From Nostoc punctiforme PCC 73102 (GTDB lineage: Bacteria > Cyanobacteriota > Cyanobacteriia > Cyanobacteriales > Nostocaceae), in NCBI RefSeq assembly GCF_000020025.1, contig NC_010628.1:330001-362000 (forward strand): a stretch of 32,000 bases of DNA. Reading direction: 5' to 3'. Below, one piece after another: positions 1,923 to 8,692 of this stretch; the first letter of the stretch is position 1, and each line of letters opens with the position of its first letter. A program made the position numbers and the translations under genes. Under the pieces are notes generated by a model. It saw only the letters and a program-made list of their open reading frames with translations, ran no database searches and had not been told where the DNA came from.

Positions 1923-3818
1923 ATGACTTCCGCAGACAGAGATCCCAAATTTGAAAATCTACTGATTTATCTCAGACAAAGCCGGGGATTTGATTTTACA
2001 GGCTATAAGCGCTCGACTTTGATGCGTCGAGTCTGCAAGCGGATGCAGTCATTGACTATAGAAAACTTTGAAGAGTATTTGGACTATCTAGAAGTTTATC
2101 CAGAAGAATTCAATTATCTTTTCAACACTATCTTAATTAACGTCACCGCTTTTTTTCGAGATTCATCAGCTTGGGAATACCTAGCAGAGAAAATACTGCC
2201 TAATCTGATTAGTAATAAAAAAACTTCTGACCAAATACGTATCTGGAGTGCTGGCTGTGCTTCTGGAGAAGAAGCTTACACTTTAGCAATGTTGATGGCT
2301 GAAATATTGGGAGCAGAGGAATTTCGCCAACGGGTGAAAATCTACGCCACTGATGTAGATGAAGAGGCTCTCAACCAAGCTCGTCAAGCTACGTATTCAG
2401 CAAAAGATGTCCAGGCAGTATCAGATGAACTGCGGCAGAAATACTTTGAGATTGTCGGTAATCGCTATGTCTTCCGTCAAGACTTGCGCCGCTCAGTGAT
2501 TTTTGGTCGTCACGATCTGCTTCAAGATGCGCCCATTTCGCGCTTAGATTTGCTGGTTAGTCGCAATACATTAATGTATTTTAATTCGGAGACTCAAGGG
2601 CGAATTCTAGCCCGATTTCATTTTGCACTTAACGATAATGGCTATCTATTTTTAGGGAAAGCAGAGATGCTATTGATGCATTCTAGTCTGTTTACCCCAA
2701 TAGATTTAAAAAACCGGATATTTAGTAAAGTATCGTCGGTAAGTATACGCGATCGCCTCTTAGTTATGGCAAATACAGTAGATGACGAATCTAGCAGCCG
2801 TGTGTCTCGACATTTGCGGCTGCGAGATATGGGTTTCGACACATCACCAATCGCTCAAATAGTCATTGATATCAATGGCACTCTGGTAATGGTGAATGAG
2901 CAGGCACGGACTTTGTTTGCCCTTTCTCCCAAAGATTTAGCTCGTCCTTTCCAGGATCTAGAACTTTCCTATCGACCGATTGAATTGCGATCGCTAATTG
3001 AACGGGCTTATACTGAACGCCGCCCAATTACCCTAACAAATGTAGAGCGCTATTTGTCTAACACAGAAACTCAATATCTGGATGTGCGAATTACGCCTTT
3101 GCAAGAAACAGATACCAGTTTTTTAGGTGTTAGCATCTCCTTTCATAATGTCACTCGTTATATTAAACTCCAAGATGCTCTGCAACGCTCGCAACAGGAA
3201 TTAGAAACTACCAACGAAGAACTCCAATCCACCAATGAAGAATTAGAAACTACCAACGAAGAACTCCAATCCACCAATGAAGAATTAGAAACTACCAACG
3301 AAGAACTCCAATCCACCAATGAAGAATTGGAGACGATGAATGAAGAACTCCAATCTACTAATGAAGAATTACAGACAATTAATAACGAACTAAGCCAGCG
3401 CACCACAGAACTTAATCACGCAAATATTTTCCTAATCTCTATTCTCAGAAGTCTGCAAACTGGAATAGTGGTAATTGACGGCAGCTTTAATATCTCAATT
3501 TGGAATTATATGGTAGAGGATTTATGGGGGCTGCGAACTGATGAAGTTCTAGGAAAGTCTATCTTCAGCCTAGATATTGGACTACCTGTTGAGCAGTTGC
3601 GATCGCCCATCCGCGATTCTTTGTCTGGTAAAAAACAATTTCAAGAAATGATCTTTGATGCTACTAATCGTCGAGGTAGGCAAATAAAATGTTACCTGGC
3701 AATCACCCCGTTGCTTGGTATGGATATACAGGGAGCAGTTTTGATGATGGCAGATGTAGAGAGAGTCCATAGTATGATTTCTAGTCAAGATATGGAGGAA
3801 CGGCGGCAACAGGAATAA
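1923..3818 (+). CDS. CheR-type SAM-dependent methyltransferase fused to PAS, coiled coil and PAS (no kinase module)
   Basis: 631 aa. CheR N-terminal helix region and SAM motif 'IRIWSAGCASGEEAYTLAM' and 'LVSRNTLMYF'. These are followed by a PAS-like segment, the 'EELQSTNEELETTNEEL' coiled coil typical of CheB/CheR-fusion sensors, and a second PAS-like segment. The ORF ends without HisKA/HATPase. Confidence 0.85.
   Translation: MTSADRDPKFENLLIYLRQSRGFDFTGYKRSTLMRRVCKRMQSLTIENFEEYLDYLEVYPEEFNYLFNTILINVTAFFRDSSAWEYLAEKILPNLISNKKTSDQIRIWSAGCASGEEAYTLAMLMAEILGAEEFRQRVKIYATDVDEEALNQARQATYSAKDVQAVSDELRQKYFEIVGNRYVFRQDLRRSVIFGRHDLLQDAPISRLDLLVSRNTLMYFNSETQGRILARFHFALNDNGYLFLGKAEMLLMHSSLFTPIDLKNRIFSKVSSVSIRDRLLVMANTVDDESSSRVSRHLRLRDMGFDTSPIAQIVIDINGTLVMVNEQARTLFALSPKDLARPFQDLELSYRPIELRSLIERAYTERRPITLTNVERYLSNTETQYLDVRITPLQETDTSFLGVSISFHNVTRYIKLQDALQRSQQELETTNEELQSTNEELETTNEELQSTNEELETTNEELQSTNEELETMNEELQSTNEELQTINNELSQRTTELNHANIFLISILRSLQTGIVVIDGSFNISIWNYMVEDLWGLRTDEVLGKSIFSLDIGLPVEQLRSPIRDSLSGKKQFQEMIFDATNRRGRQIKCYLAITPLLGMDIQGAVLMMADVERVHSMISSQDMEERRQQE
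3198..3392 (+). repeat. In-frame 42-bp tandem repeat inside the CheR-PAS gene
   Basis: Unit 'gaattagaaactaccaacgaagaactccaatccaccaatgaa' occurs at 3198-3239, 3240-3281 and 3282-3323, identical by eye. A diverged copy follows at 3324-3365, then a partial copy. It encodes (ELETTNEELQSTNE)n. Confidence 0.9.
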
Positions 3819-3981
3819 TTTACAGCAGTTTTCCTTTGCAAAAAGTACAAAGAAAGCTACAAATTTTGATGTAGTTATTGCTGGAGTTAGAAACTCTTTA
3901 TTTATAATTTTCAGCTTTGAATTTTGTACCTAATTTACTAGTCACACTGAAAAAATATAGAGAATTAGTACTATGGCAATC

Positions 3982-5064
3982 TCAGAATTTAGATTCAATT
4001 TTTTGGCTCAACCAATCGCAAAAACTAGCATGATAGAGACTATAATAGATTTCTGTTGCTATTGAATCTAAATGTAAAAATTCTCGCCACTCGTCTAAAA
4101 TTACCTTGATTTCATATTCATCTATATCTAATCTTTCTGCGATCGCTTCTATTGAAGTTGATTGCTCTTGAACTAAGATATTTAACACCAGTAAACCCAT
4201 TCTTTGCTGTTTACTGGTGACTAAGTTTATCTTGTCTAAATGAGTTTGGTAATAAATTTGTAAGTTTTCGGGATAAATATCCTCATTAATAGCTGCTAAG
4301 ATTTCACTAACATACATAAAGTTAGTCTCGCCATCATCAAAACCTTTCTCTGCCAATTTTAGCGAAACATCTTTTGTATTCTTATCTTCGCTAAATCTAC
4401 GTTCAGAATGAGATAATTTATTTAAATGATTTTTAATATATTCTTGGATATCAGCGCGATTTTTTTCTTGGTAATTTGATAAATCTAAATATTGGGCTGG
4501 AGTTTCAATTAACAAGCCTGATTTATCTGTCAGAAATGGACGACGAGCAAGGATAAAATAAACTTTTTCTGGCAGATAACGTGGTAAATAGAATATATTT
4601 GAGCCACGTGGTTGATTGTTGATATCAATCCTATCACAGCCATCAATTGTAATAATTAACCGTTGATCGGGATGCAATCTATCGCTGATTTTTTGTAGTA
4701 ATAATGATAAAAAGCCACTGCCTTCTGTGGTAAAATCAGGAAAGTTAGCTATAATATTTGTGCTACCTTGATTTTTGGCAATTTCTATTAATTGAGTGCA
4801 AATACTTGTAAAAAATTCTTCAACGTGATTTTTACCTGCAATTTCTACATTGTAATAGACAATACCAGAATTCTGGCTGACATAATGAGCAATAATGGCA
4901 CTTTTACCAATACCAGGATCGCCGATAATAGTAAAGTAGCCACGATCGTATTGATTGATAAAATTTTTAATAGCAGAAAAAACAAATTCACGACCGATGA
5001 AATTATGATTTTTGGCGTTGATAAATTGCTCAAATTCGGCAGTATATTTAGGGATATTATTCAT
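3982..5064 (-). CDS. Minimal STAND (NACHT-like) P-loop NTPase: NTPase plus winged-helix region only
   Basis: 360 aa. Walker A 'GDPGIGKSAI' (4900-4923), Walker B 'RLIITIDGCDRID', sensor-1-like 'YFILARRP', C-terminal 'YYSLYHASFCDWL' WH-type motif. It is collinear with the NTPase part of ORF 6815-8380. Its ATG lies 3 nt after the WD40 stop, with a GGAAGGGGG SD-like element. Confidence 0.75.
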   Translation of the reverse strand: MNNIPKYTAEFEQFINAKNHNFIGREFVFSAIKNFINQYDRGYFTIIGDPGIGKSAIIAHYVSQNSGIVYYNVEIAGKNHVEEFFTSICTQLIEIAKNQGSTNIIANFPDFTTEGSGFLSLLLQKISDRLHPDQRLIITIDGCDRIDINNQPRGSNIFYLPRYLPEKVYFILARRPFLTDKSGLLIETPAQYLDLSNYQEKNRADIQEYIKNHLNKLSHSERRFSEDKNTKDVSLKLAEKGFDDGETNFMYVSEILAAINEDIYPENLQIYYQTHLDKINLVTSKQQRMGLLVLNILVQEQSTSIEAIAERLDIDEYEIKVILDEWREFLHLDSIATEIYYSLYHASFCDWLSQKIESKF

Positions 5065-5067
5065 TTT

Positions 5068-6813
5068 TTAACCCCCTTCCAAATGCAGAAAATGGACCCG
5101 ACCTGAATGTTCCCCGATGAGAAATGTTAATCCATCTGGAGAAACTGTACAGCAATATATAGAACTTTCACCCGTAAAAGTAGAGATTACCTTCCCTGTC
5201 TCTAAATCCCACAGTTTCAGGGTGGTGTCAGTAGAACTAGAAACGGCTTTTTGACCATCTGGGGTGATGGCTACTGCTGTTACCGAATCTTTATGACCGC
5301 TTAGGGTAGAGATTGCCTTTTCTGTCTGCAAATCCCATAATTTCAAGGTGGTGTCAGCAGAACCAGAAACAGCTTTTTTTCCATCTGGAGTTATGGCTAC
5401 TGCTGTTACCGAATCTTTATGACCGCTTAGGGTAGAAATTGCCTTTCCCGTCTGCAAATCCCATAATTTCAAGGTGGTGTCAGCAGAACCAGAAACAGCT
5501 TTTTTTCCATCTGGAGTTATGGCTACTGCTGTTACCGAGTCTTTATGACCGCTTAGGGTAGAGATTACATTTCCTGTTTGCAAATCCCATAACTTCAAGG
5601 TGGTGTCAGCAGAACCAGAAACAGCTGTTTGTCTGTCTGGAATAATAGCTACTGCATTTACCGAGTCAGTATGACCTCTGAGGGTAGAGATTGCTTTTCC
5701 TGTCTCCAAATCCCACAGTTTTAGGTTGGTGTCACTTGAAGCAGAAACGGCTTTTTGACCATCTGGAGTAATGGCTACTGCATTTATCGAGTCTTTATGA
5801 CCTGTAAGTGTAGAGATTTGCCATCCCGTCTTCAAATTCCACAGTTTTAGGTTATTAGAAACAGAAACAGCTTTTTTTCCATCTGGGGTAATGGCTACTG
5901 CATTAACTAAACCTCTATGACCTCTCAAGGTAAAGGTTTCTCTTCTTGTCTCCACATTCCATAGTTTCAGAGTCCAAAGCTTTAGAGTCCACAGTTTCAG
6001 GGTGTTGTCACTAGAAGCAGAAACTGCTGTTTGACCATCTGGGGTAATGGCTACTGAATTTATTGAGTTGTTATGACCTGTGAGGGTAGAGATTTCCTTT
6101 CCCGTCTTCAAACTCCACAGTTTCAGGTTATTAGAAACAGAAATGATTGTTTGACCATCTGGGGTAATGGCTACTGCATTTACTGAGGCTTGATGACCGC
6201 TTAGGGTAAAGGTTTCCTTTCCCGTCTGTAAATCCCATACCTTTAGGGTGTTGTCATCAGAAGTAGAAACAGCTGTTTGACCATCTGAGGTTATGGCTAC
6301 TACATTTACCGAAGCTTTATGACCAGTCAGGGTACGTAGTAAGTTTCCTCCCGGAGTAGTTAAGGTGGCTGTGATGGGGTAAAAGCGAGGATTTTCACTT
6401 TTACTTTGAACTGCATCTACCAATATTTTCTGAATTTCTGGTTCAGGAAAACTTTGCAATCTACCCCATAATTGCCCTACTAATTGATTTGGATCTTGAT
6501 TTAAAATATGGGCTGATAACTGTAGGGTACGTTCAATTAATTTCAGGGTTTTGACTTGCCCATAATCTACTCTTTCGTCTTCCTCTAGCCTATCTAATAT
6601 CTCTGGATCATCAATCAAATAATAATCCCTAATTAGGGTTTCTACTCCAAATTGAGGATATTGGATTTTTAGAGAAATAAAATCAAAATCCGTGAGGGTT
6701 TCATAATATTTTTTTGAGTTACCTACTTTTAATTGTTGCTCAGGAAATTGACCTAAAAACAAATTTTGAAACTCTGCTGATTTTGAGGCTAATTTAGCGG
6801 CAATTCCCCCCAT
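5068..6813 (-). CDS. WD40-repeat protein (about 10 repeats) with an N-terminal helical linker domain, no NTPase
   Basis: 581 aa. About 155 aa are helical ('LQLSAHILNQDPNQLVGQLWGRLQ', as seen between the NACHT and WD40 parts of single-chain cyanobacterial NACHT-WD40 proteins). Then come 10 x ~42-aa 'GH..V.AVAITPDG..AVS.S.D.TLKLWDL.TG' repeats. AAGGAG (6824-6829) lies 10 nt upstream of the ATG. Confidence 0.9.
   Translation of the reverse strand: MGGIAAKLASKSAEFQNLFLGQFPEQQLKVGNSKKYYETLTDFDFISLKIQYPQFGVETLIRDYYLIDDPEILDRLEEDERVDYGQVKTLKLIERTLQLSAHILNQDPNQLVGQLWGRLQSFPEPEIQKILVDAVQSKSENPRFYPITATLTTPGGNLLRTLTGHKASVNVVAITSDGQTAVSTSDDNTLKVWDLQTGKETFTLSGHQASVNAVAITPDGQTIISVSNNLKLWSLKTGKEISTLTGHNNSINSVAITPDGQTAVSASSDNTLKLWTLKLWTLKLWNVETRRETFTLRGHRGLVNAVAITPDGKKAVSVSNNLKLWNLKTGWQISTLTGHKDSINAVAITPDGQKAVSASSDTNLKLWDLETGKAISTLRGHTDSVNAVAIIPDRQTAVSGSADTTLKLWDLQTGNVISTLSGHKDSVTAVAITPDGKKAVSGSADTTLKLWDLQTGKAISTLSGHKDSVTAVAITPDGKKAVSGSADTTLKLWDLQTEKAISTLSGHKDSVTAVAITPDGQKAVSSSTDTTLKLWDLETGKVISTFTGESSIYCCTVSPDGLTFLIGEHSGRVHFLHLEGG
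5071..6345 (-). repeat. 126-bp (42-codon) WD40 tandem repeat array with near-identical internal copies
   Basis: 126-nt periodicity is visible in the DNA. Copies 5270-5395 and 5396-5521 differ at 3 positions in my manual alignment. Copy 5522-5647 is slightly more diverged. Confidence 0.9.
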
Positions 6814-6814
6814 T

Positions 6815-8380
6815 TTATGCCATCTCCTTAAGCATATAATTAGCCATACTTTTATTAACTTCTCTAAAGAGCTTTCGACCTTTACCTAGTTTGTCTTGAG
6901 ATTTGAGAAATTCCAGAAAACTTCGATGATAAATACTATAGTAAGTTTTGTGTTCATCTACATTTACTTTCGGTGTTACATATTCAACCCACTCGTTTAA
7001 TACCGATTTCACCTCATATTCTTCCTCATCAAGAATCTCGGTAATCATATTTATCGATATTGGTTCACCTCTTTCTACCAATATATAAAGTATTTTTACC
7101 TTTTTTTCATTGGATTCTTTATCCATCCCCATACGATTCCAATGAGTTGTATAATAGTCTTGAAGTCCTTGCGGTAATCCTTTTAAATTTAAATCATTGT
7201 ATTTACCCTCAGAAATTCCGGGTAAGAGATAGCGTAAATATATAAAATTATTTTCACTCTTAACAGCTATTTCTTGAGTGAAACTATCTTCAGAAATATG
7301 GCGTTCATTAATCCAATTCTTCAGGTCTGAATCATTATTCAGATATAATTCAATATACTCTTTAACATCTTCTTGACTCAAAGCTGTATAATCACCTTGT
7401 GTTAAATCTAATTCATATACAGGAGTATCTGGAGACAAAGTTAAACGTTTTGTCTCTTGATTATAAAGTCTTCTAGTCAGTAAGAAATAGACTCCATTAG
7501 GAAGATTTTGTGGTAAATCTAAAAGATTACCATTTCCTTCTTGTTCTACTTCATCTAGTGCATCAACAACAATTACAAGTTTTTGTCCTTTTAGTTCTTC
7601 ACTAGCTTTTTGCAGTAAAGTCCTTAAATCAGTGTTATCTGCATTTTGGAGAGAATAACGCTTAATTAATTGTTGACGAATACTAGCTAGAAACTTCTCT
7701 GGTTTGTTGCGTCCTTCTGCAAAAATATTAAAATAACAAGGAAATTTATAAGCTAGAACATATTTAGCAGCAATGGCACTTTTACCCATCCCTGCATCCC
7801 CAACTATACTAAAATAACCTTTGGCTTGAGTTGTAAAAAATTTTTGGATAGCCTTAAAAACAAAATCACGTCCGCAAAATAAGCGAGTTTTTTCAAAGAT
7901 TAATGCTTTAAATTCTTTGGAATAAACATCTAAGTTCCAATCTGGATAGGGCTGATATTTTGAGGATTTTGTTTGTTTGGCAACTGCAATAAAAGCTTCA
8001 CCAAATTCTTCTATTTCAGCCAAAAAATTTATTTTAGCATTGATTAACTGCATTTTTAATTCGCTGTTTTGATTAAGAAGCTTTTTTGCATTTTCTACGA
8101 ACTTAAAGGGAGTATTAGAACTGTAAGCATCCCAAAAACAACCTTTAATTTCTTTTTCTCTAAACAGGTTTAAAATTGCTTCATGCTTAAATACACCATA
8201 TCGGATCAAAGCATAAATATAGACAGTATCAATATCATCAGAAATTTGGGTAGGATTGAGTTTTAATTCGTGCAGAATGTTAATAACAGCTTCGTTTTTT
8301 TGAGCTTGTTTAATGATTAGTTGACTAGCTTGAGGGGCATATTTACTAATTACTGAAGTAATGGCAGCAAATTCTATCAT
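6815..8380 (-). CDS. STAND (NACHT-like) P-loop NTPase with an uncharacterised ~160-aa N-terminal domain
   Basis: The track ORF runs to TTG 8515. The first ATG (8378-8380, 'MIEFAAITSV') is the more plausible start. Walker A 'GDAGMGKSAI' (~7778-7801), Walker B 'KLVIVVDALDEVE', 'YFLLTRRL', 'YYSIYHRSFLEFL'. The stop codon lies 1 nt before the WD40 ATG. Confidence 0.75.
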   Translation of the reverse strand: MIEFAAITSVISKYAPQASQLIIKQAQKNEAVINILHELKLNPTQISDDIDTVYIYALIRYGVFKHEAILNLFREKEIKGCFWDAYSSNTPFKFVENAKKLLNQNSELKMQLINAKINFLAEIEEFGEAFIAVAKQTKSSKYQPYPDWNLDVYSKEFKALIFEKTRLFCGRDFVFKAIQKFFTTQAKGYFSIVGDAGMGKSAIAAKYVLAYKFPCYFNIFAEGRNKPEKFLASIRQQLIKRYSLQNADNTDLRTLLQKASEELKGQKLVIVVDALDEVEQEGNGNLLDLPQNLPNGVYFLLTRRLYNQETKRLTLSPDTPVYELDLTQGDYTALSQEDVKEYIELYLNNDSDLKNWINERHISEDSFTQEIAVKSENNFIYLRYLLPGISEGKYNDLNLKGLPQGLQDYYTTHWNRMGMDKESNEKKVKILYILVERGEPISINMITEILDEEEYEVKSVLNEWVEYVTPKVNVDEHKTYYSIYHRSFLEFLKSQDKLGKGRKLFREVNKSMANYMLKEMA

Positions 8381-8577
8381 TTTTATTCCCGAAAATTTAC
8401 TATTTTGCTGATGAGTAGTATTACAAATCTTACACAGTAGGTAATACTGGGTAATATTAATGGCGCATCTGCCAAAACTTGCTTGTGCTGCTAGAGCTAT
8501 AGCTTCCGTGGGCAAAGCCTACGCACAAGATTGTAATTGTGATGCTGATACTAAGCGTTATTTTTAACACATACTGC

Positions 8578-8609
8578 GTAGGGGCGTACAGCTAGCTGTG
8601 CGCCCCTAC
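8578..8609. repeat. Imperfect 32-bp palindrome GTAGGGGCGTACAGC-TA-GCTGTGCGCCCCTAC
   Basis: The 15-nt arms are complementary apart from one T/C position. It shares GTAGGGGC...GCCCCTAC termini with the palindromes at 15777 and 18026. It lies in the divergent intergenic region between the STAND operon and miaE. Confidence 0.7.
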
Positions 8610-8692
8610 TATAAACAAATTGCTCCATCCACGATTAAAATCAATTTGCTAAGGTACTCAGCTAAATTAAAATTCTGGAGTTTTGTGACTCT

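Follow-up and report, generated by a model that had tools for sequence, protein, structure and literature searches.

The DNA analyzed here is a stretch of 32,000 nucleotides (nt) from the cyanobacterium Nostoc punctiforme PCC 73102 (NCBI RefSeq assembly GCF_000020025.1, contig NC_010628.1, positions 330,001 to 362,000), referred to below as the window and numbered from its first letter. Three genes, here named g1, g2, and g3 in their 5' to 3' order, lie side by side on its minus strand: g1 encodes a putative NTPase of the NACHT type with an N-terminal helical domain, g2 a stand-alone protein consisting of a helical linker and WD40 repeats, and g3 a second, bare NTPase that is a paralogue of the first (Table 1). 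Comparison with related loci indicates that the three genes form a conserved cyanobacterial cassette, and their domain order suggests that together they make up one NLR/Apaf-1-like system of the STAND class that is divided over three polypeptides.

Gene layout and junctions

In a preliminary description of this stretch, which was made from the letters and the predicted open reading frames (ORFs) alone, three minus-strand ORFs had been reported with gaps of 1 nt (6814) and 3 nt (5065-5067), with AAGGAG located 10 nt ahead of the g2 ATG and GGAAGGGGG ahead of the g3 ATG. All of this can be read directly from the sequence, and Shine-Dalgarno (SD)-like sites thus precede both g2 and g3. Given the common strand and the short spacers, the three genes presumably form one co-transcribed operon. 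An alternative TTG start would extend the g1 ORF to 6815..8515; this extension was rejected and the ATG start retained because about 120 homologues are approximately 521 amino acids (aa) long and begin at the same Met.

The same description had considered g1 and g3 to be collinear paralogues, g2 to be a helical linker followed by 10 WD40 repeats, and both NTPases to end directly after a winged-helix motif. The paralogy was borne out by the alignment of g3 aa 3-355 with g1 aa 149-495 (35% identity, E 2e-58), with all of the quoted motif pairs present in the translations, and g2 has a non-repeat region of 161 aa ahead of repeats spanning aa 162-581. The third statement is only approximately true of g1, in which an additional C-terminal helix (aa ~503-520) was predicted that g3 lacks.

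Table 1. Position and supporting evidence of the genes, domains, motifs, and junctions of the three-gene locus in the window (aa, amino acids).
Feature	Position	Strand	Basis
g1: NNH5 plus putative NACHT-type STAND NTPase	6815..8380	(-)	521 aa, ATG start; ACC79051.1 / WP_012407078.1
g1 NNH5 domain (aa 4-139), all-alpha, putative effector/adaptor slot	7964..8371	(-)	Pfam PF22736, E 5.8e-40
g1 NTPase module (aa ~165-495): nucleotide-binding domain, helical lid, winged helix	6896..7888	(-)	AlphaFold2 secondary structure and fold matches
g1 Walker A GDAGMGKS (aa 194-201)	7778..7801	(-)	G-x-x-G-x-G-K invariant, n=72; final S/T 70/2
g1 Walker B and NACHT signature VIVVDALDE (aa 269-277)	7550..7576	(-)	D-A-L-D-E in 72/72 g1-type sequences
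C-terminal tail and helix of g1 (aa 497-521), with no counterpart in g3	6818..6892	(-)	AlphaFold2 helix 503-520; g1/g3 alignment ends at aa 495
g1/g2 junction	6811..6829	(-)	AAGGAG 6829-6824, TAA 6817-6815, 1-nt spacer 6814, ATG 6813-6811
g2: stand-alone putative sensor, helical linker plus 10 WD40 repeats	5068..6813	(-)	581 aa; Pfam WD40 2.5e-92
g2 N-terminal helical linker (aa 1-161), Apaf-1 HD2-like	6331..6813	(-)	Sub-threshold APAF1_C match and position in single-chain relatives
g2 WD40 array (aa 162-581), 10 repeats	5071..6330	(-)	126-nt period; repeats 7 and 8 97% identical (DNA)
g2 micro-tandem repeat, 15 nt x 2.9, in WD repeat 3	5958..6000	(-)	Encodes LKLWT-LKLWT-LKLW
g2/g3 junction	5062..5080	(-)	GGAAGGGGG 5080-5072, TAA 5070-5068, AAA 5067-5065, ATG 5064-5062
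g3: bare NACHT-type NTPase paralogue, without N-terminal domain or sensor	3982..5064	(-)	360 aa; ACC79049.1 / WP_012407076.1
g3 Walker A GDPGIGKS (aa 48-55)	4900..4923	(-)	G-x-x-G-x-G-K core in 53/53 g3-type sequences; final Ser 51/53
g3 degenerate Walker B IITIDGCDR (aa 137-145)	4630..4656	(-)	First Asp invariant, n=53

Conservation of the three-gene cassette

Related loci were collected with a profile scan for g1 using one genome per species, which yielded 316 relatives, and the best 80 of these (g1 identity 46-90%) were examined. They cover Nostocales, Fischerella, Rivularia/Calothrix, Chroococcidiopsis, Crocosphaera, Coleofasciculus, Okeania, and Trichodesmium; one of the 80 records is labelled Acetobacteraceae and may be a mis-binned lichen metagenome-assembled genome (MAG), the others being cyanobacterial. 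A g2-type linker gene was the next gene after g1 in all 73 loci with at least 700 nt of downstream sequence, and a g3 orthologue followed on the same strand in 49 of the 53 loci for which 6.5 kb or more of downstream sequence was available. In the window a stop codon parts g1 from g2, so that the architecture of effector, NTPase, and sensor in one polypeptide is absent, and g1 and g2 were fused in none of 78 related loci; the uninterrupted NACHT-WD40 ORF that the preliminary description had contemplated for close relatives was therefore not encountered.

The g1/g2 junctions of these 78 loci comprised a 1-nt spacer (34 loci), an overlap (14), an in-frame spacer of 0 or 6 nt (6), a 13-nt spacer (2), and gaps of 50-600 nt (19, several of them with hairpin-like inserts), the remaining 3 being broken or interrupted. 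The motif RRGRAGATGGCRTRA-N-ATGGG with the 1-nt spacer was present in 34 of the 78 loci, and a conserved ATG-GGN opens g2 in every junction class; judged from these junctions, start-stop coupling between g1 and g2 is conserved. Spacing between g2 and g3 was tight (at most 12 nt, or overlapping) in 24 of 54 loci.

Ratios of nonsynonymous to synonymous substitution rates (dN/dS), calculated by the Nei-Gojobori method against nine orthologues, were 0.13-0.24 (g1), 0.11-0.32 (g2 linker), and 0.18-0.28 (g3), and by this measure all three genes are under purifying selection. Pairwise distances calculated for g1, for the g2 linker, and for g3 were correlated across 42 loci (r ~0.8, compared with 0.89 between the two domains of g1); in the mirror-tree comparison, co-evolution of g2 with g1 could not be distinguished from co-evolution with g3. 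Its recurrence in dozens of genomes places the arrangement far outside what chance would yield, and on the comparative evidence it is a long-lived three-gene cassette and not a strain-specific frameshift or broken gene. The preliminary description had proposed a split STAND/NLR-like module and a survey of its synteny, and the gene order is indeed kept across several cyanobacterial orders.

When all flanking ORFs were clustered, no conserved fourth gene emerged save an antisense Uma2 gene in one subclade. This gene encodes a putative endonuclease of the Uma2 family (PF05685, E 9e-35; 68-100% identity between loci) and in 18 loci is located between g2 and g3 in antisense orientation, in 2 others just after g3; it is missing from the window. 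The loci concerned include L027, L028, L033, L034, L037 (13964-14539, minus strand), L038, L044, L049, L064, and L073 as well as others, and their hosts include Nostoc, Fischerella, Calothrix, and Coleofasciculaceae. An accessory or effector role is possible for the Uma2 gene, as is hitch-hiking with the cassette.

The NTPase and the N-terminal domain of g1

The part of g1 that had been described as an N-domain was identified as NNH5, the Pfam 'NACHT N-terminal helical domain 5'. Its AlphaFold2 model (predicted local distance difference test score, pLDDT, 85.7; predicted template modelling score, pTM, 0.81) consists of 8-9 helices. The conserved residues of NNH5 are mostly aromatic, which makes it unlikely to be an enzyme.

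Sequence models placed the remainder of g1 among the NACHT-type NTPases: the Pfam NACHT model (PF05729) was passed marginally (27.4 bits, gathering cut-off 26.7), NPHP3_N was matched above its cut-off (29.2 versus 24.8 bits), AAA_22 and NB-ARC matched as well, and the winged-helix/lid region gave weak matches to AAA_lid_TANC1 (Pfam) and to the winged helix-turn-helix (wHTH) entry 2d1h. When the g1 profile and the g2 linker were searched against PDB sequences, a wHTH was returned at E 0.026 and otherwise noise. The AlphaFold2 model of g1 (pLDDT 84) shows a nucleotide-binding domain, a helical lid, a winged helix, and a final C-terminal helix, and its best PDB matches in Foldseek were ADP-bound and full-length Apaf-1 (1z6t/3sfz), MalT, CED-4, Cdc6/ORC, and plant NRC resistosomes, with STAND-TPR 6mfv also included (E down to 1e-7, probability 1.0). 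Because its model matches these proteins, Apaf-1 best of all, g1 is on structural prediction a STAND NTPase.

The P-loop, the extended Walker B motif, and the winged-helix His have roles in the switching of NLRs and Apaf-1. In addition to the two Walker motifs (Table 1), the sensor-1 T-R-R was invariant across 72 g1-type sequences. His485, which lies in the winged-helix motif YH[RA]SF, was invariant in 52 g1-type sequences and is also present in g3 of the window; from its position in the winged-helix domain, it may be the equivalent of the ADP-contacting His of the MHD/LHD type. The C-terminal tail and helix of g1 may be regarded as a candidate docking element.

The putative sensor protein g2

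Within the g2 linker, aa 33-115 matched APAF1_C (PF17908) below threshold (E 0.0068; 16.8 bits, cut-off 22.8), and one g2 homologue carries the UniRef name 'APAF-1 helical domain-containing'. An exhaustive HMMER search found 1186 relatives of the linker, and because the closest ~95 of them all have the domain at their N-terminus, stand-alone sensors of the g2 type appear to constitute a large family. Among the distant relatives, P0284 is a single chain of DUF4062, NACHT/nSTAND1 (300-559), linker (739-873), and then WD40 repeats, and in P0246 (SMEK_N) and P0297 (DUF4062) the linker is likewise internal and directly ahead of the WD40 repeats. Because such relatives hold the linker between a STAND NTPase and WD40 repeats, the three genes would add up to one NLR; this Rosetta-stone evidence suggests that g2 supplies the part that follows the winged helix in single-chain proteins, and the split point would then fall after the winged helix and the short C-terminal helix of g1, just before the HD2-like linker.

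In the WD40 array of the window, repeats 2 and 4 are each 2 aa short. Across 59 orthologues, 2-15 WD40 repeats were detected per protein, the mode being 13 plus a degenerate last blade, i.e. approximately 14. Calculated over 610 repeats, the entropy was highest at D-1, the position ahead of the conserved Asp (3.69 bits), with further peaks at GH+1 to GH+5 (2.4-2.9 bits); in WD40 structures these positions are hot spots of the top face. The g2 sensor thus seems to evolve like a recognition surface, with a rapidly evolving WD40 array. The exact g2 protein sequence was not found in a collection of 15 billion proteins, and g2 of the window may have been annotated with another start or differently.

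Two g2-type genes were observed in one cassette at three loci (L004, 11567-16386; L042, 2278-8119; L012, 11669-15962), and in L012 the second copy lies directly after g3. A 3.4-kb insertion separates g1 from g2 in L010.

The degenerate paralogue g3

The g3 protein has neither an N-terminal domain of the g1 type nor the C-terminal tail and helix of g1. In Pfam searches it matched AAA_16 (3e-11), narrowly missed NPHP3_N (24.5 bits, cut-off 24.8), and failed the NACHT model (15.3 bits against 26.7); a match to HTH_TANC1 was found in one g3 homologue. When the extended Walker B pattern of NACHT proteins (hhhhD[GAS]hDE) was applied to both NTPases, g1 (VIVVDALDE) passed and g3 (IITIDGCDR) failed. 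Over 53 g3-type sequences, position 144 was D (62%), N (30%), or H (8%); at position 145, R, C, A, and F predominated and E never appeared among the residues listed; the R-R-P motif was invariant.

By these comparisons g3 is a divergent paralogue of the NACHT module and not a canonical NACHT, and it appears to be an ancient one that has kept the P-loop, the Mg-binding Asp, the sensor-1 Arg pair, and the winged-helix His of the g1 module. Because the P-loop is kept and the acidic pair 'DE' of NACHT proteins is lost, g3 probably binds nucleotide but hydrolyses it poorly. It had previously been called a minimal NTPase; it is a bare paralogue, as that term implied, and it is also more than minimal in that its extended Walker B is degenerate throughout the family. 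The best 120 of 623 matches to g3 were all stand-alone proteins, with full-length members of 340-420 aa. Two metagenomic orthologues (P0404 and P0405) have an N-terminal segment of ~80 aa of the MNT nucleotidyltransferase type (PF01909/PF18765), which might stem from an uncommon fusion or from gene calls having been merged.

Related architectures and known systems

Other NACHT proteins carry different domains in place of NNH5. On Chroococcidiopsis plasmid pB an HTH-like N-terminus plus NACHT is followed by a g2-type sensor and then by a g3-like gene (Walker B DALDA), and on the Pseudanabaena plasmid ABRG53a a protein of MinD, EAD10, and NACHT is followed by a g2-type sensor amid caspase/CHAT genes, with no g3; g3 is likewise missing from the Rhizobium plasmid locus. 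The NACHT modules of Pseudanabaena and Chroococcidiopsis (42-51% identity) end after the winged helix, and their downstream genes were matched by the g2-type hidden Markov model at E 8.5e-51 and 2.8e-65. EAD4 plus NACHT was found on Nostoc linckia plasmid3 (the downstream gene lies outside the sequence seen), trypsin plus NTPase in a Bradyrhizobium relative, and a fused form of 1025 aa in Rhizobium jaguaris (L086). Because sister NACHT proteins hold EAD4, EAD10, trypsin, or HTH in this place, the NNH5 slot is, by comparison of architectures, a swappable output or adaptor position.

The variant three-gene cassette of Chroococcidiopsis sp. CCNUC1 plasmid pB (L081, 5758-12930) has a tyrosine recombinase and a toxin-antitoxin-like pair (UPF0175/DUF3368) as its immediate neighbours, which hint at mobility. 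In L069 (1095-5551, minus strand), ~5 kb upstream of the cassette, there is a second NNH5 protein of 854 aa (2987-5551) composed of NNH5, NA-iREase1, and NACHT, with NNH5 at its extreme N-terminus (E 3.7e-55); a WD40 ORF follows after a break of ~200 nt, which may be a frameshift.

Set against known systems, g1 plus g2 reproduces the order of Apaf-1 and CED-4 (N-terminal output/adaptor domain, nucleotide-binding domain, lid, winged helix, HD2-like region, WD40 propellers), Apaf-1 being the best structural match to g1 and the source of the weak APAF1_C match of the g2 linker. Apaf-1, however, is one polypeptide with an NB-ARC Walker B and a CARD, whereas the chain is here broken between the winged helix (with the g1 C-terminal helix) and the HD2-like linker, and a NACHT-type DALDE, NNH5, and the extra bare paralogue g3 are found instead. 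The bacterial bNACHT and Avs proteins share the NACHT-type NTPase, the N-terminal effector/adaptor slot, and the repeat sensor, and the family is abundant in cyanobacteria; the characterized ones are single chains, whereas the cassette has its sensor in a gene of its own, in strict linkage, and includes a second NTPase paralogue. Paired NLRs (NAIP-NLRC4, RGA5/RGA4, the NRC network) resemble the cassette in having two adjacent paralogous NTPases, one output-bearing and the other specialized or degenerate, but each partner has its repeat sensor in cis, which in the cassette would be supplied by a third protein; the likeness may be one of function, with homology limited to the STAND module. The NNH5-NA-iREase1-NACHT protein of L069 has the same N-terminal NNH5 and a downstream WD40 ORF; it differs in its inactive restriction endonuclease insert, its classical DGFDE motif, a C-terminal region that continues in cis, and the lack of a g3 partner. 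A similar layout is seen in the pairs of Pseudanabaena and Chroococcidiopsis pB, in which a NACHT protein that ends after the winged helix is followed by a gene for a g2-type linker and propeller, with a g3-like gene also present in Chroococcidiopsis pB; their N-terminal slot holds MinD plus EAD10 or an HTH-like segment and not NNH5.

Genomic context and literature

None of the genes flanking the cassette in the window was common to any of the 80 loci, and the neighbouring ORFs of the other loci, judged by eye, were mostly housekeeping genes. The NACHT genes of the window are AT-rich, with a GC content of 0.32 (4001-5000 and 7001-8000) compared with ~0.41 in the flanks and ~0.40-0.48 in neighbouring genes, which is consistent with a foreign origin or with a family-specific composition. 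No match to the three proteins was found in INPHARED or IMG/VR, the NCBIfam models returned nothing specific for them, and the PADLOC matches of g2 were to generic WD40 models only.

A near-perfect palindrome of 32 nt (GTAGGGGCGTACAGCT followed by AGCTGTGCGCCCCTAC) lies at 8578-8609, ~200 nt upstream of the g1 start. Because public short-read assemblies end or turn chimeric exactly at 8610, it is probably a dispersed genomic repeat. Logan contigs spanning g1 and g2 were rejected as evidence for co-transcription, as they break at the palindrome (8610) and within the WD repeats (5597), and one of them is chimeric beyond 8610. The CheR-PAS gene of the window (1923-3818, plus strand) contains ~8 near-identical, heptad-like repeats (TNEELQS/TNEELET) at 3150-3410 that are coiled-coil-like.

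The names of the NNH domains come from the bNACHT paper, according to which bNACHT genes are found only rarely in operons, and in poorly conserved ones (bioRxiv 10.1101/2022.07.19.500537). No description of the three-gene cassette was found in the literature searched, which included that paper, the conflict-system papers of the Aravind laboratory, and a 2026 STAND survey; this absence does not by itself establish novelty.

Interpretation and alternative explanations

The general model, in which the three polypeptides of this conserved cyanobacterial operon together make up a split STAND system of the NLR/Apaf-1 type, is the reading we favor, and from the sequence comparisons we assign it a probability of 0.6. 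For an immune or conflict role of the system the odds appear about even. Of the preliminary description, the observations were confirmed and extended by the conservation of the split, the purifying selection, and the HD2-like linker; its interpretation was supported in part.

Several results weigh against this model. The counts given above come from the 80 closest relatives of g1, many of them Nostoc MAGs, and are phylogenetically redundant. The g3 gene is lost or a remnant in 4 of 53 loci (2 keep short fragments) and is therefore not strictly essential. The g2 protein of the window has 10 repeats and an odd LKLWT micro-duplication compared with ~14 repeats in most orthologues, so its propeller geometry is uncertain. 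The NNH5 model had no structural analogue in the PDB and BFVD (Foldseek, best E 0.8-0.9), and no enzymatic or pore-forming fold could be recognized in it. Scans for promoters and terminators around the operon gave chance-level results. The neighbours in the window are housekeeping genes (PPK2, CheB, CheR-PAS, MiaE, CobS, TGT) and form no defence island, and the PADLOC check that had been suggested for the locus returned no system, since PADLOC-DB v2 contained no significant match (STAND_TPR 2.3e-6 and 4.2e-5, Avs1b 1.2e-3) and the weak matches were to generic STAND models.

Among the alternatives, g3 might be a decoy or negative regulator: a NACHT without effector and incapable of hydrolysis that, in the manner of an antitoxin, prevents autoactivation by capping or sequestering g1 (or g2), with g2 serving g1 only. 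The family-wide degeneration of its Walker B, the absence of both an output domain and the g1-type C-terminal helix, the loss of this component in a few lineages, and the existence of distant split pairs without it (on Pseudanabaena and Rhizobium plasmids) speak for such a brake. We nevertheless consider it unlikely, as purifying selection has preserved the P-loop of g3 along with its sensor-1 RR pair and winged-helix His, which suggests a real nucleotide switch and not an inert decoy, and as the second g2-type gene directly after g3 in L012 hints at a pairing of g3 with a sensor.

A second alternative is an intracellular signalling switch outside immunity, which would respond to some endogenous cue such as stress, development, or, in cyanobacterial populations, programmed cell death, with the WD40 array acting as a scaffold for host proteins. 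It would fit the lack of a defence-island context, of a PADLOC system match, and of relatives on phage or viral contigs, and MalT, one of the best fold matches, is a regulator. It is made rather improbable by the WD40 repeat number being in flux and the hypervariability being confined to the top face, which is typical of non-self recognition, by the duplications of the sensor gene, by the variable genomic context, AT-rich composition, and plasmid-borne copies, by the EADs, trypsin, and caspase/CHAT neighbours of sister architectures, and by the antiphage activity of bNACHT and Avs relatives (bioRxiv 10.1101/2022.07.19.500537; PMC12803255).

It could further be argued that the split is only apparent and that a programmed, prfB-like +1 frameshift at the g1 stop codon produces an NNH5-NACHT-HD2-WD40 fusion. 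The geometry of the junction resembles that of prfB (SD-like AAGGAG, 3 nt, the last sense codon GCA, and then UAA-A), g2 lies in the +1 frame at 46 of 56 tightly linked loci, and RRGRAGATGGCRTRA is conserved at the nucleotide level although the encoded tail is variable. The P-site codon GCA/GCG, however, cannot re-pair in the +1 frame as in slippage of the prfB type, and is not slippery. Moreover, g2 is in frame behind an intervening stop at 6 loci, in the +2 frame at 4, and 50-600 nt away at 19, all of these classes retain its start codon and MG(G) N-terminus, and Stop-N-ATG and ATGA overlaps are ordinary signs of translational coupling; we therefore regard recoding as very improbable.

Decay, in which a strain-specific frameshift would have broken a single-chain NACHT-WD40 gene and left a paralogue behind but no three-part function, would account for the one-base offset of g1 and g2 and for distant single-chain relatives with the same linker (including the fused Rhizobium L086), but it is effectively refuted by the absence of fusions from all 78 related loci, the uniform length (~521 aa) of about 120 g1 homologues down to 54% identity, the g2 ATG-GGN that is kept even behind gaps of 50-550 nt, and the purifying selection (dN/dS 0.11-0.32) on all three genes.

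Proposed mechanism and significance

Within the split-system model, g2 would act as a ligand sensor in trans through its HD2-like linker and WD40 propeller array. The linker is envisaged to dock non-covalently on the winged-helix/C-terminal region of g1, and possibly on g3 too, by which an autoinhibited Apaf-1-like unit would be rebuilt; g2 may in this way be common to both NTPases, in a sensor/helper relation. Binding of a foreign or danger-associated protein at the WD40 top face would release the inhibition, nucleotide exchange would come next, and g1 would oligomerize with g3, which in the oligomer might serve as a non-hydrolysing scaffold, nucleator, or brake. The NNH5 domains clustered in this manner would trigger the output, in which an effector might be recruited or a toxic assembly formed directly, with growth arrest or death of the cell as the result.

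In its most specific and more tentative form, to which we give less than an even chance, the proposal is that of a modular 'trans-sensor' NLR, in which a free HD2-WD40 receptor plugs into two NACHT switches, one complete and output-bearing and the other hydrolysis-impaired, in which sensors and N-terminal domains are swapped or duplicated independently, and in which NNH5 is a structurally unprecedented output domain. The duplication of sensor genes at some loci and the different domains held by the N-terminal slot in related proteins fit such an exchange.

So far, the NLR-like proteins that have been studied in bacteria are single chains with sensing, switching, and output hard-wired to one another. 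If the proposal is true, the cassette would be a bacterial counterpart of the division of labour between sensor and helper NLRs that was reached by another route, and NLR logic could be assembled non-covalently, which would explain how sensors and outputs are exchanged in arms races. NNH5, a domain without structural relative, would be a candidate for a new output module. The cassette would also offer a tractable model of how a sensor passes its signal to a separate NTPase and of what a hydrolysis-impaired paralogue contributes, questions that are open for the NLR pairs of animals and plants.

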